Below the pieces are notes generated by a model that was not told where the DNA came from, ran no database searches, and saw only the letters and a program-made list of their open reading frames with translations. A program made the position numbers and the translations under genes. This document shows, piece after piece, positions 36,183-56,330 of a stretch of DNA of 64,000 bases; position 1 is the stretch's first letter; every line of letters starts with the position of its first letter. The stretch is from an uncultured Actinomycetes bacterium. Its GTDB lineage: Bacteria; Actinomycetota; UBA4738; HRBIN12. Location of the stretch: positions 1,093,246 through 1,157,245 of the forward strand of contig CAVPJX010000001.1 in NCBI GenBank assembly GCA_963705545.1, in the 5' to 3' direction.

Positions 36183-37826
<1,644 letters not shown>

Positions 37827-37886: not shown

Positions 37887-38195
37887 CTACTTCTTGTTGA
37901 CGACGGCGAGCACGTCGCGGGCCGACAGGATCAGGTACTCCTCGCCCTCGACCTTCACCTCGGTGCCGCCGTACTTCGAGTAGATCACGGTGTCGCCGAC
38001 CTTCACGTCGACCGGGATCCGCTTCTCGCCGTCCTCGTCCCAACGGCCCTCGCCCACGGCCACGACGGTGCCCTCCTGGGGCTTCTCCTTCGCGGTGTCG
38101 GGGATCACGAGACCCGACGAGGTCATCTCGTCACCCTCGTTCGCGTGGACCACGATGCGGTCCTCGAGCGGCTTCAGGCTGAAGTCCTTCGCCAT
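37887..38195 (-). CDS. groS: co-chaperonin GroES
   Basis: [16 protein letters not shown]. 102 aa. Confidence 0.95.
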
Positions 38196-38214
38196 GCTGG
38201 TTGCCCTCCTCGCG

Positions 38215-38241
38215 TTAGCACTCGACCTGCTTGAGTGCTAA
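38215..38241 (-). promoter_or_regulatory. CIRCE operator (HrcA binding site) TTAGCACTC-N9-GAGTGCTAA, proximal copy
   Basis: Perfect match to the CIRCE consensus, 20 nt upstream of the groES start. Confidence 0.85.
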
Positions 38242-38342
38242 CAGGATAGCGACGAGAGTCACCCTCGTTCGCGTGGACCACGATGCGGTCCTCGAGCGGC
38301 TTCAGGCTGAAGTCCTTCGCCATGCTGGTTGCCCTCCTCGCG

Positions 38343-38369
38343 TTAGCACTCGACCTGCTTGAGTGCTAA
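38343..38369 (-). promoter_or_regulatory. CIRCE operator, distal copy created by the 128-bp duplication
   Basis: Sequence identical to the proximal CIRCE, 128 bp further upstream. Confidence 0.7.
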
Positions 38370-38415
38370 CAGGATAGCGACGAGAGTGCCAAGGGTCAAC
38401 GCGGCCGGAGGCGGG

Positions 38416-39216
38416 TCAGTCTCTCGGCTCGAAACTGATGCGTCCCCGCTTCTTCGCGAGGAGCCAGCGCGGGTTGGCCGCGTTCAGCCGGAGGCTCAGG
38501 AGGCGGCCCCGGATGGTCTCGCCCAGGTCGCCGCGGCCGTGCTGGTCGCGGACCATGCGACTCTCGCGTTCCATGGCCTCCGCATCGAGGGAGATCTGTG
38601 CCGGGTGGAGACGGAATCGACCTAGGGTAGCCCGCATGATCCTGGGGTGCTGGAGTCGGAGCGCGCGCGCGTACCAATCGTAGTCCCCGCAGTTCCGGTA
38701 CGCGAGATCGAACGTCCCGACGAGGTCGACGAAGGACCGGCGGGCCCACACGGTCTGCTGAGGGATGCACGACCAGCCGAGCCCCAGGTACGAAGGGAGC
38801 GAGAGGTGAACGGGCGTCATCCGACCGAGGACGTCGCCGTGCTCATCGATGTACTCCACCCGACCGCAGAGCCACCCGAGGCCCGGGTCGCGGGCGAACG
38901 CCGACGCGATCCGCGAGAGCGCCTCGGGCGCGATCTCATCGTCGGCGTTGATGTACCCGACGATCGACCCTCGAACGAGCGACATCCCTCGGTTGATCGC
39001 GTCGTACATCCCTTGGTCTTCCGTGGAAGTGACGACCCTGGTCGGATAATCGGAGGCGATCTCTGTCGTCCGGTCCGTGGACCCCCCGTCGACCAATACG
39101 TGGTCGATGCGGATCGTTCCGTCTTGCTGGTCCCAGATCGAGCGAAGCGTCGACGCAAGGAACTCCTCGCCGTTGAGGGTCGGCGTCACTACCCCAACCG
39201 TCACCGGCTCAGACAT
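38416..39216 (-). CDS. family 2 glycosyltransferase
   Basis: VVTPTLNGEEFL, DGGSTD and DDE motifs of GT-A fold GT2 enzymes. ATG is the complement of 39214-39216. Confidence 0.8.
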   Translation of the reverse strand: MSEPVTVGVVTPTLNGEEFLASTLRSIWDQQDGTIRIDHVLVDGGSTDRTTEIASDYPTRVVTSTEDQGMYDAINRGMSLVRGSIVGYINADDEIAPEALSRIASAFARDPGLGWLCGRVEYIDEHGDVLGRMTPVHLSLPSYLGLGWSCIPQQTVWARRSFVDLVGTFDLAYRNCGDYDWYARALRLQHPRIMRATLGRFRLHPAQISLDAEAMERESRMVRDQHGRGDLGETIRGRLLSLRLNAANPRWLLAKKRGRISFEPRD

Positions 39217-51391: not shown

Positions 51392-52160
51392 TCACCGGCG
51401 CCCCGATCCGGCGGGAGCCCGGCCCCGCTTGAAATGGAGACGATCGGACACGACCCCGGCGACGAACCGAGGATTGCCCACGAGGTATCGACCCGCAGAG
51501 CCGGCGAGGCTCCGATGCGAGTCGGAAGAGCCACTCGAGGCCGGCGTCCTGCATCCAGCGGGGGGCCCTCTGGCTCGTCCCCGCCAGGAAATCGAACGCC
51601 GCTCCCACGCACAGGATCACCGGCGCCGCGTCGAGCCCGCCAGGCGCCCGGCCATGACGTCCTGCTTCGGCGCCCCCAGGCCGATCCACAGCACCTGCGC
51701 CGCTGAGTCCCGCATCCGCTGAGCGCTCGCCTCGACTTCATCGTCGGAGAGCGTTCGGAACGGGGGCGACTCCGCTCCGACGATCTGGATGCCTGGGTAT
51801 GACCCGTCCAGCGTCGCTCGAGCCGCGCGAGGGTCTCCGGACGCCCTCCGTAGAGGTAGTGCCGCAGGCTCGGTCGACCCCCCAGTCGGAGAGGAGCTCC
51901 GTGCCATCGGCACCGGCCAGCCGCTCCGTCTTCGACCCGAACATCCGGGCGGCCCATGCGACCGGCATCCCGTCCGGGACGTTCAGCGAACCCACGTTCA
52001 AGACCTCTCGATAGGCGGGGTCGGTCCGCGCTTCGACGGTGGGATGGGCAGCGCAGAAGTGAACGACGTGGCTGTGACCGCACGGAGGAACCCAGAGATC
52101 GCGTCGATGAACGTCCCGGGCGTGACCGGATCGATCCGGACACCGTTCACTTTCGGCCAC
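51392..52160 (-). pseudogene. WecB/TagA/CpsF-family glycosyltransferase, broken into at least three reading frames
   Basis: LNVPDGMPVAWAARMFG, then [12 protein letters not shown], then [21 protein letters not shown]...[13 protein letters not shown], then RYLVGNPRF, each in a different frame of the same strand. Confidence 0.65.
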
Positions 52161-52294
52161 TCGACTCGCTCGCGGCAGCGACGCTCCGCGCCAACGAGGA
52201 CGGACGATCGGTCGGGGAAGGGCGGCTGCTCACTCGCCCTTCACCGACTTGCGGCGACCTGCTCGGACGCCGGTGGGCGGCGTGCCGCGGCCGG

Positions 52295-53312
52295 TCAGCA
52301 TGAAGTCGAGGATCGCCCCGAACCTCGTCGGCGTCCTTCGTCGCGAAGTACCAGTCGAACGTCCGCTTCAGTCCGTCCGCGAACGGACACCTGCGGCTCC
52401 CATCCGAGGAGCTCCTTCGCCAGCGAGTTGTCGGCAACGCGATTCATCGGTCCGACCGGCATGTCGAGCTGCTTGACGATCTCCGGCTCGTACCCGGCCA
52501 GCTCACACACCATGCGGACCGCGTCGATCACCTTCACCCGCTCCATCGTTCCCAGGTTGACCGCGGTGCCGTCGTCGATGCGTTCGGCCGACCGGATCGT
52601 TCCTTCGACGATGTCGTCGACGTACGTCCAGTTCCGGATCTGCTCGCCGTTGCCCCAGACGAAGAACGGGTCCTGCTTCAGGAACGCCCGGGCGATCATC
52701 GCGATCACGGCGTGGTTCTCGACTCCGCGTGGCCCGTACACGGTGAAGTATCGACACGATGCGGTCTTCATGCCGTACTCGGCGTGCATCGCCCGCAGCG
52801 TCAGCTCGCCGGCCATCTTCGCGAGGCCGTACAGGCCGTCCGGGTCGTACCCGGGCGCCTTCTCCATGTCCTCGGTGAGGAACAGCGTCTCCCCGGGATC
52901 CGCCTGGAGGTAGAGCGGGTAGATGCAGCCGGAGGACGCGTAGACGATCTGCTCGACCGCCGGCGTCCAGCGCCGAGCGGAACAGGACCGCGTCCAAGCC
53001 CAGGTTCGTGGAACATGCGTACTGATGGAGGTCGACGTACCCGCGACCGCCGTGATCGGCCGCGAGGTGGAAGATCACATCGATACCGTCGACGGCCGGC
53101 GCGCGACATCAGGGTCTCGGAGATCGCCGCTGGATCAGCTCGACGGATCCGTCGTCGACGACTCCCTGGATGTTGCTCAGGACGCCGCTCGAGAGATCGT
53201 CGACCACGCGGACCGACGCACCACGGGCGAGCAACGCATCGACCAGCGTCGACCCGATGAACGAGGCCCCGCCCGTCACGAGGACCTTCTTGGATGCCCA
53301 CGTGTATCCCAT
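52295..53312 (-). pseudogene. NAD-dependent epimerase/dehydratase, in-frame TGA at 53109-53111 plus a frame change near 52880
   Basis: KKVLVTGGASFIGSTLVDALL ... [TGA] ... DGIDVIFHLAADHGG...NLGLDAVLF, then YGLAKMAGE... in another frame. Confidence 0.65.
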
Positions 53313-53404
53313 GAGATCGCTCCTTCTCCCGCTTCGCCGCTCCAGGCCGCTAACCCCGCTGCGCCGCCCCGGGAGAACTCCCGCAGGCGGCGCGACGACA
53401 GCGG

Positions 53405-55060
53405 CTACGGGGTGACCTTGAACTTCATCCCGGTGCTCTTCGCCGAACCGCCCGGCGTCGTGATCTTGATGATCCCCTTGGAGAAGCCGGCCGGGACGAT
53501 CGCCGTGATCTGCACGTCGGAGTCCACGGTGAAGCTCGTCGCCGGAACGTCCCGAACGTGACGACCGGTGCTCCCGTGAAGACCGGTTCCCTGGATCACG
53601 ACCGGGGTCCCCATCGGACCGGACATCGGCGAGAACGTCGTGATCGTCGGAACCGGCGGCGGCGGTGGCCCCTCCGACGAGCACGAAGCGGGCGAACCCC
53701 GATTGCGGCAGCCCGTCGAGATCGACGTGAACCACCCCCGACGAAGAGGTGTCGCTCGTGATCTGCATCGCCCAGGCGCCGATGTAGTTCTCGGCGCCGA
53801 CGCCCGACCCGGGTGCGCTCTGGCCGCGGAAGGGGTACATCTGCGGGAACCAGTCGCAGTAGAAGGCGCCGGTCGCCGGGTTGACGCTGACGAGACCGTG
53901 CGCCCACACGTTGCTCCCGCACGAGGTGATCCGGTAGTCGAGGACGGCGGTGCCGAAGTGGCCGCCGACGAACAGGCGCGTGCCGTCCGGCGACAGGGCC
54001 AACGCTTCGCGTTCCCCGGCGATCCTTGTGACCAGATCCGCATCGCGCAGCCCCCGCCGACGGAGCACTCGTCCGGAGCCGCTGGTCGTCATGGTCTCGT
54101 TGAACGCGTGAACCCGTTCGGCGTCCTGCCCCACGCGACGAAGACGCGACTGGCCGTGGACAGGATCGTCCCAGGTGATGTTCGGGACCGTCGTACGGGT
54201 TGCTCGGACGACTCGCCGGGGATCGTCGCCCACGGGACCCTCCAGCGAGGAGCGAGCCGTCCGTCAGCGTGACTCGAGCGATCGTGTTGCGCGGCGTGCC
54301 GTTCACGTAGAAGTAGTTCCCGCCGACGAACAGGCTGTTGCCGTCGTGAGCCAGCGAGCCATGCATGGACGTTCCCGGTCCCGCCGTTCGTGACGGGACC
54401 ACAGCTCGTGCCGGGCGGGAACTGGCTGGGACACGGGTTCGTCCCTGCGGTCGCCGATGGGACCCAGGCGTTGCTGAGGCTCCCGTCGACCGCGGAGATC
54501 GCCGCGAGGTGCTCACGGGTCGAGCCGTTGACCCGCGTGAAGTTGCCGCCCAGGTAGACGAGATCGACCGTCGCGATGGATCACGTTGCACCGTGCCGTT
54601 GGGCGAGATCGTCACGGACGGGGTCGACCTGGGTTCCGGTCGCGGCGTCGACGGCGGCGAAGTATCTGCGCGCTGCGCCGTTCACGGCATCGAACTTCCC
54701 GCCGAGTAGAGCGTCTGACCGTCCGATCGAAACGGCGAGCGCTTGATCCTCGTCGGCTCCGCTGCTGTTGGTAACAGCCGCGGTGAAGCGCGGGATGTAG
54801 GCCCCGGTATCGTGTCGAAGGCGGCGAGGTTCTGCACTGGAACCGTCTGCCCGGGGGCCTTCGCCAGAATCGAACGTCCCACCCACGTAGAGCACGTTCC
54901 CGGATCGAGCCAACGCGTAGGTCTTGCCGTTCGTGCTTCCACGTGCGGGTCGGGCGAGTTCGACAGCGCGGAAGCGGGCTCCGCAACGACGACGAGCCCA
55001 GCCACCAGGGCGAGCAGGCGCCGCGATCCGCACGGACCGGGGAAGCTTCATCTCCATCAC
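53405..55060 (-). pseudogene. secreted beta-propeller repeat protein with C-terminal IPT/TIG domain, multiply frame-disrupted
   Basis: The signal peptide, repeat blocks (GKTYALARSGNVLYVGGTF; AHDGNSLFVGGNYFYV) and a clean C-terminal IPT/TIG domain (SGPMGTPVVIQGTGLHG...ITTPGGSAKSTGMKFKVTP) are spread over four frames. Confidence 0.5.
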
Positions 55061-55297
55061 TCCTTTGTCCTACATCGTGACAACCGCCAGGTCTGCTGTA
55101 CGTCCGACACGGGGGAGGCCGTTCGAGGGGCACATGGTATCGGCTGGGGGAGGCGACCAGCATCCGCCATTCGGGCGATTCGACCCCCTGCCGGCTAGGC
55201 CATCTGCCATGGGAGGGCCTTAGGGTCTTCGCCAGCACGCGACGGACCCTCCGCCCTATTGAGCTGGTCGAACCAAGGACCTACACTCCTCGGCCGT

Positions 55298-56330
55298 ATG
55301 AAGATCAAGATCCTCTGTACGCTCGGCCCGGCCTCGCTCGAGACCGAGGTCCTGCGCGGGATGGACGAGCGCGGTGTCGATCTCTTCCGCATCAACCTGT
55401 CGCATACGCCCGTTGGACGCCGTCGATCCGACGATCGCTGAGGGTCCGTCCGTGCATCGTCGACGCCCATCTCCCTGGACACCGAGGGCGCGCAGGTCCG
55501 CTGCGGGTCGATGCCGGATGGCGTCGCCCTCGAGGAGGGCCAACAGGTCCTCCTGACGCGCGAGGCGATCGTGGGCGATCGTGAGAGGTTCACCCTTTGG
55601 CCGAGCGTCGTCTTCGAGACACTAGCTCCAGGGACGTTGATCGGAGTGGACTTCGACGGGGCCATGCTCGAGATCACGCGGCGTGGGGGGATCCGAGGCG
55701 TGGGCTTCAGTGGTCCACGGAGGTCGGGTCCGCTCGAACAAGGCGGTGACCGTCGACCCGCCTCCTTCGCTGCCTCGCTCTCCGAGAAGGACGAGTCGGC
55801 GATCGCGATCGGTGCACGTCTCGGCATCACCCACTACGCACTCTCGTTCGCGAGCGTGCGCGCGGACGTCGATCGCATCCGGAGCTTGGCACCGGCCGGG
55901 GCACACATCATGGCGAAGCTCGAGAGCCGGGCAGGCGTGCGCCACATGGACGGCGTGATCGAGGCGGCCGACTCGATCGTGATCATCGACCGCGGGGACC
56001 TCTCACATGACCTCCCCTTCGAATCGGTCCCGTACTACCAGAAGGCGATCGTGAGACGCGCGAACCGGTGGAACCGACCGGTCTACGTCGCGACGAACCT
56101 CCTCGAATAGCTTGGTGACGAGCCAGACGCCGACGATCGCCGAGGCCAACGACATCGCGAATACACTGCTCGATGGGGTCCACGGGCTCGTGCTTGCCGC
56201 GGAGACGGCCATCGGACTCGATCCCCTGGGCTCGATCGATCTCGTCCGACGAGCGATCCGCGCCTTCGAGCAGGCGAGCGAAGCGGGATTGTTGCTCGAC
56301 GATCGCACTCGACTCGAGGTTGCCACGTAG
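55298..56330 (+). pseudogene. pyruvate kinase-like (barrel domain only) gene with in-frame TGA (55439-55441), TAG (56108-56110) and a +1 shift
   Basis: MKIKILCTLGPAS..FRINLSH; ISLDTEGAQVR; AKLESRAGVRHMDGVIEAADSIVIIDRGDL; TPTIAEANDIANTLLDGVHGLVLAAETAIG. No allosteric C-terminal domain. Confidence 0.6.

Follow-up and report, generated by a model that had tools for sequence, protein, structure and literature searches.

Organisation of the groES locus

We analysed a stretch of DNA of 64,000 nt (hereafter the window), in which an intact groES and the downstream groEL are preceded by a single complete σ70-type promoter and by two copies of the CIRCE operator (Table 1). The CIRCE consensus, TTAGCACTC-N9-GAGTGCTAA, is matched perfectly twice, as against 0 matches expected in shuffled sequences. 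In the element, two inverted 9-bp arms enclose a spacer of 9 nt. It lies within the groES promoter/leader, 46 nt ahead of the ATG, a placement that is conserved at orthologous loci. The predicted transcription start (~38364) falls inside the left arm of the distal CIRCE. Each copy resembles the textbook CIRCE/HrcA operator of groESL, with the perfect consensus located after the -10 box and before the groES Shine-Dalgarno sequence (SD), and the same holds for the relatives. Such operators serve class I heat-shock regulation in Gram-positive bacteria and Actinomycetota, and hrcA, the gene of the cognate repressor, is usually unlinked. The difference from the textbook arrangement is the exact tandem, which supplies the predicted operator, -10 box, SD and 22 codons in duplicate. 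No Rfam family matched the leader or any other part of the 64-kb window.

The duplicated unit begins within the promoter spacer, so that the -10 box lies inside it and the -35 box outside. The complete promoter is confined to the distal copy, whose gene is a stump; the proximal copy has the intact gene and an incomplete promoter. Upstream of the proximal -10 box we found no usable -35 element, the hexamers there matching TTGACA at no more than 2 of 6 positions, and this box is possibly a weak -10-only promoter, as judged from its sequence. The stump opens an orphan ORF encoding the first 22 residues of GroES followed by 27 out-of-frame residues, with its stop codon 22 nt inside the real groES.

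Table 1. Position of the features at and around the groES locus (window coordinates).
Feature	Position	Strand	Remarks
groEL	36183–37808	-	541 aa; co-transcribed with groES
groES, intact	37887–38195	-	ORF of 102 aa; identical protein on 4 other contigs
Proximal copy of the 128-bp unit	38130–38257	-	Runs on into intact groES
Orphan ORF	38174–38323	-	49 aa; own SD GGAGG at 38333–38337
Extended hairpin (predicted)	38202–38261	-	CIRCE stem plus CUCUC/UCGC pairing with GCGA-GAGGG; real groES SD at 38205–38209
Proximal CIRCE, perfect match	38215–38241		Fully transcribed if the transcript comes from the distal promoter
Duplicated -10 hexamer TATCCT	38243–38248	-	Read from the sequence; no call by the promoter scan
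Distal (upstream) copy of the 128-bp unit	38258–38385	-	Part of promoter spacer, -10 box, CIRCE, SD, ATG, groES codons 1–22
Distal CIRCE, perfect match	38343–38369		First base 2 nt past the -10 box
-10 hexamer TATCCT	38371–38376	-	Promoter scan; belongs to the only complete σ70-type promoter; 17-nt spacer
Junction microhomology, AC on the minus strand	38386–38387	-	TRF array ends at 38387; recurs at 38258–38259 and 38130–38131
-35 hexamer TTGACC	38394–38399	-	Single-copy, outside the repeat; conserved in L001–L004
Lower-GC polysaccharide/sulfotransferase island	38404–58420		~20 kb; absent from relatives, where ~1 kb stands instead
GT2 glycosyltransferase, last island gene	38416–39216	-	Stop 17 nt upstream of the groES -35 box
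Frame-broken genes	51498–56273		WecG-type transferase 51498–52070; epimerase 52904–53291; PK-barrel 55298–56273

A perfect 128-bp tandem repeat

The two copies of the unit are identical base for base (100 % identity in a repeat search), and TRF reports them as a single array (38130–38387) with a period of 128, 2.0 copies, 100 % matches and 0 indels. In a 40-mer census the 128-bp pair was the sole repeat of at least 40 nt, direct or inverted, within the 64 kb, and a chance origin of the repeat is excluded. The window contains 0 ambiguous bases (Ns). The initial annotation had reported that 128 bp are perfectly duplicated in tandem, that this creates two perfect CIRCE elements at a distance of 128 bp, and that an orphan groES start runs out of frame; repeat search and TRF, the consensus matches and the 49-aa ORF bear out all three. 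It had also placed the groES start within the unit, correctly, and counted 21 codons there, where we count 22 complete codons when the microhomology described below is included.

The copies lie head to tail with a defined junction, as in a genuine tandem duplication. Identity continues for 2 nt beyond the two units, giving a junction microhomology of 2 bp. The arrangement is like that of spontaneous short-junction tandem duplications in bacteria, which combine head-to-tail copies with minimal junction homology, and a 2-bp junction is plausible for such an event. However, the microhomology carries no weight, because ~16 % of random junctions show at least 2 bp, and it is uninformative on the origin of the repeat. 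The common de Bruijn overlap sizes are 127 and 141; since the period of 128 bp is neither, we do not argue for a k-mer-overlap origin.

Single-copy relatives and natural double operators

An exact look-up retrieved an identical GroES from four metagenome contigs (L001–L004), each with the same promoter, one CIRCE and one start. At one position of the CIRCE spacer both window copies have T where L001–L004 have C, a private C-to-T substitution common to the two copies. A scan based on GroEL, in which each species was represented by one genome, gave matches exclusively in uncultured Actinomycetota/Acidimicrobiia-like MAGs, the best of them at 85–87 % GroEL identity, and each of the six closest relatives has one CIRCE upstream of groES. 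We then surveyed 50 related loci with enough sequence upstream of groES: CIRCE is present in 49 of them, once in 36 and twice in 13, and absent from one. The duplicated groES 5' end was absent from all 50 surveyed loci, from L001–L004 and from the six closest relatives. Comparison with related strains, which the initial annotation had proposed, gave a single copy in every relative examined, and the two readings between which it had hedged, a very recent event or an assembly artefact, both survive.

Further traces of the duplication were sought in sequence collections. The junction had no match in a metagenome collection, which is itself incomplete. A relaxed leader pattern had no match in scans of public genomes or metagenomes, a weak result, as is that for the junction, in that one scan missed L001–L003, which are known to contain the pattern. 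The orphan ORF was found neither in a gene-position index nor in an exact-sequence collection of 15 billion proteins, where a 49-aa ORF may never have been called; the latter collection does hold GroES, GroEL, GT2, a sulfotransferase and another neighbour from the same contig. When GT2 homologues were used to look for a sister assembly of the island-groES junction, the next-best match had only 75 % identity and stood in another context.

Two operators are not unusual per se. Two CIRCE elements lie upstream of Streptomyces groES1 and groEL2 (PMC13284173), and the 13 loci of our survey appear, from their sequences, to reflect a dual-operator layout conserved in part of the Acidimicrobiia-like clade (L016, L028, L030, L034, L040, L042, L046, L049, L057, L064, L075, L079 and L084). 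Seven of these 13 CIRCE-like pairs are spaced about 49 bp apart. The window shares with these natural double-CIRCE promoters the presence of two HrcA-type operators upstream of groES, and one could therefore propose an evolved, selected architecture in which two HrcA sites and a regulatory upstream ORF tune groESL. We regard this as very improbable. The natural pairs are diverged, 29–49 bp apart, confined to promoter and leader and conserved within their lineages, and the gene start is never duplicated; the copies here are identical, 128 bp apart and accompanied by a second gene start. The layout is missing from all close relatives, which are single-CIRCE, including the four with identical GroES and promoter, and there is no sign of age or conservation. 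What is unusual, on this comparison of sequences, is the identical 128-bp copy that is private to this one.

Two further tandem repeats were noted beside groESL. L015 has a perfect repeat of 42 bp x 2.6 directly upstream of the groES CIRCE (L015:3534-3641), and L019 one of 31 bp x 2.2 just downstream of groEL (L019:2651-2718). No further perfect repeat whose period was at least 30 turned up in the 742 kb examined, in which all loci are groEL-centred, so that sampling is biased to this region.

The adjoining island and local sequence quality

In relatives, ~1 kb, containing a DUF7144 gene and a small ORF, separates groES from a tsaE-tsaB-rimI-tsaD-epimerase block on its upstream side. In the window the same block is found at 58.4–62.8 kb, ~20 kb away from groES, and the interval is occupied by an island with a GC content of 64–65 % compared with 69–72 %, and a GC3 of 0.72–0.84 compared with 0.90–0.97. 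The island encodes GT2 and GT4 proteins, four sulfotransferase-type proteins, a MatE-like flippase, Wzy, a Wzz/AAA_31 kinase and an RTX+NHL protein, and from its gene content looks like a horizontally acquired sulfated-polysaccharide cluster. Its composition indicates that it is foreign, not that it is recent. Homology to relatives ends at ~38403, and the distal edge of the repeat (38385–38387) is 16–20 bp away.

Given its nearness to the island edge, the repeat might be read as an att-site or target-site duplication, formed when the 20-kb island inserted site-specifically at the 5' end of groES. Repeats formed by integration flank the element, whereas here both copies stand in tandem on one side; no third or partial copy is present at the far edge (~58.4 kb) or elsewhere in the window, and no integrase or recombinase was found among the annotated island genes. 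We rejected an att-site origin for want of a third copy at the other island boundary, and the whole proposal is scarcely credible.

The window also has local defects. At least 7–8 single-base frame switches interrupt otherwise well-conserved genes between 51.5 and 56.2 kb. The epimerase alone has three switches within 175 nt (53130–52957), with flanking peptide segments that stay well conserved; a GCCGGC context is seen at two of these three sites. Such a pattern points to indel errors in the local consensus, or to mixed haplotypes, rather than to old pseudogenes. The core genes on both sides of the island are intact and give single-frame matches to the proteins of relatives.

Sequence conservation varies sharply along the locus. 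Among five lineages, groES with its leader differs at 0–2 of 309 nt, groEL at 3–7.6 %, mostly synonymously, and the tsaD side at ~13 %; compared with L001–L004, the near-invariant segment spans window positions 37887–38406. Codon bias alone fails to explain the invariance of groES, because groES and groEL both have a GC3 near 0.96–0.97. To judge from these alignments, either recombination spreads the segment or its synonymous sites are constrained. We considered the repeat as a marker of a mosaic or haplotype switch specific to the window and rejected this, because the near-identity of groES is common to all five lineages.

Predicted effects on transcription and translation

If the duplication is real, transcription would proceed mainly from the one complete promoter under control of the distal CIRCE and HrcA, and the transcripts would start inside the distal CIRCE. 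Their 5' end would be weakly structured, which should allow efficient translation of the orphan ORF from its own SD. The transcribed proximal copy would fold into an extended hairpin that buries the real groES SD. RNA folding gave −29.7 kcal/mol (z −2.4) for this hairpin in the duplicated mRNA, compared with −10.3 kcal/mol (z +0.5) for a wild-type-like 5' end, a specific and sizeable effect that counts in favour of a genuine duplication. Ribosomes on the orphan ORF would melt the hairpin and terminate just inside groES; because they would cross the hairpin and stop at this point, translation of GroES is predicted to be coupled to the orphan ORF. The layout is like that of translational coupling by upstream ORFs, in that the predicted ORF ends just inside the next gene and crosses a structure that masks its SD. 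Both effects suggested in the initial annotation, tighter HrcA repression and a decoy translation start, would need refining. On this model the orphan ORF is more likely to be a coupling or unwinding upstream ORF than a simple decoy. Alternatively, the proximal -10 box, if it is a weak -10-only promoter, could yield a wild-type-like mRNA under the second CIRCE. Lying ~130 nt downstream of the transcription start, the proximal CIRCE with HrcA bound to it could act only as a roadblock to transcripts from the distal promoter, or could be the operator of that -10-only promoter.

The groES SD region, GCGAGGAGGG, has a complement in CUCUCGUCGC, which immediately precedes the -10 box, and an equivalent is present in L001–L004. 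The CIRCE is therefore nested within a longer, interrupted inverted repeat extending across the -10 box. By our folding model, the longer stem would form only in RNA initiated upstream of the usual promoter. We detected no terminator in the interval from the GT2 stop codon to the groES -35 box. It is conceivable from the co-directional arrangement that read-through from GT2 enters the groES leader and transcribes the full CIRCE together with the SD-masking stem.

These predictions could be combined into a real one-step rewiring, with a hairpin-locked SD, GroES and GroEL dependent on the 49-codon orphan ORF, and two HrcA operators, one of which would block initiation while the other would serve as a roadblock or control the -10-only promoter; the allele would perhaps be retained because of read-through from the newly adjacent island gene. 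We consider such a rewiring unlikely.

Origin of the second copy

Our preferred reading, adopted with some caution, is that the second copy is probably a false tandem duplication that arose in assembling a metagenome-derived genome. In its favour are the single copy in L001–L004, in the six closest relatives and throughout the survey of 50 loci, and the failure of both the junction and the orphan ORF to appear in the collections. The locus varies between related populations and has consensus defects nearby; this adjacency to a variable junction, together with the defects, tilts the balance towards an artefact and is readily explained by false duplication. We infer a long-read assembly from the single NCBI/ENA contig of 1,677,817 bp, the MAG-only relatives and the indel-type frame breaks. 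The error would be located where the ultra-conserved segment of groES and its leader meets the strain-variable 20-kb island. In a mixed community this shared ~0.5-kb segment would act as a short shared node of the assembly graph, and the sequences of reads or graph edges would have been mis-stitched at the haplotype branch point. A spurious insertion of 128 bp would be too large for polishing to remove. If the repeat is an artefact, the copies would be identical, down to the private C-to-T substitution, because the same reads served to polish both. In that case the true locus would be ordinary, with TTGACC-17-TATCCT, one CIRCE overlapping the transcription start, one SD and groES-groEL under textbook HrcA repression.

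Errors of this type have been documented. Many MAGs of the clade are nanopore assemblies produced with Flye and Medaka (PMC12313526), and long-read metagenome assemblers have been found to create direct duplications without any supporting read, to make haplotyping errors at variable loci where these adjoin conserved flanks, and to break ORFs with unsupported indels (bioRxiv 10.1101/2025.04.22.649783). The present case is like those false duplications in being a perfect direct repeat seen only in an assembly, at a population-variable locus with indel-broken ORFs nearby. The published examples are mostly longer and were found by read clipping, whereas this one is known from the assembly alone.

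Several observations speak against an artefact. Genuine duplications of 128 bp are normally resolved correctly by long-read assemblies. Around the repeat, the assembly of groES-groEL and of the core genes on the tsaD side is clean, and the edge of the repeat is near the synteny break, not exactly on it. The arrangement is biologically tolerable, as one full promoter and one full essential gene are kept. Zero divergence fits any genuine young tandem repeat equally and is expected for one of this size; tandem repeats of ~128 bp should disappear or become homogenised sooner than they diverge.

The tolerable layout, the well-assembled core genes and the zero divergence also count in favour of the opposing reading, a genuine and very recent tandem duplication private to the strain or population, which is a serious possibility that we nevertheless place on the improbable side. 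Illegitimate or microhomology-mediated joining at the 2-bp AC would have produced it, perhaps with help from the CIRCE palindrome or from the recombination event that brought in the island. The other perfect tandem repeats beside groESL, in L015 and L019, are in its favour. Against it stands the fact that no other sequence, in relatives or collections, contains the duplication. It also adjoins a strain-variable island with consensus errors, which would require either coincidence or an extremely recent acquisition of the island; as a scar of that acquisition the event must be extremely recent, and the composition of the island says foreign, not new.

Significance

The duplicated groES 5' end is most likely not biological; should it be biological after all, it is a one-off mutation of recent date, a variant of the known double-CIRCE layout. 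As an artefact, it would call for a curation flag, to warn of 128 bp spuriously inserted at an essential operon and of a run of genes broken by indels, and would be an example of how assembly errors can mimic regulatory innovation at strain-variable junctions. If real, it would be a small natural experiment in which a single mutation provided both an upstream ORF and a further HrcA operator, and masked the groES ribosome-binding site. Its interest for heat-shock regulation would then be modest, because double-CIRCE promoters are already known.
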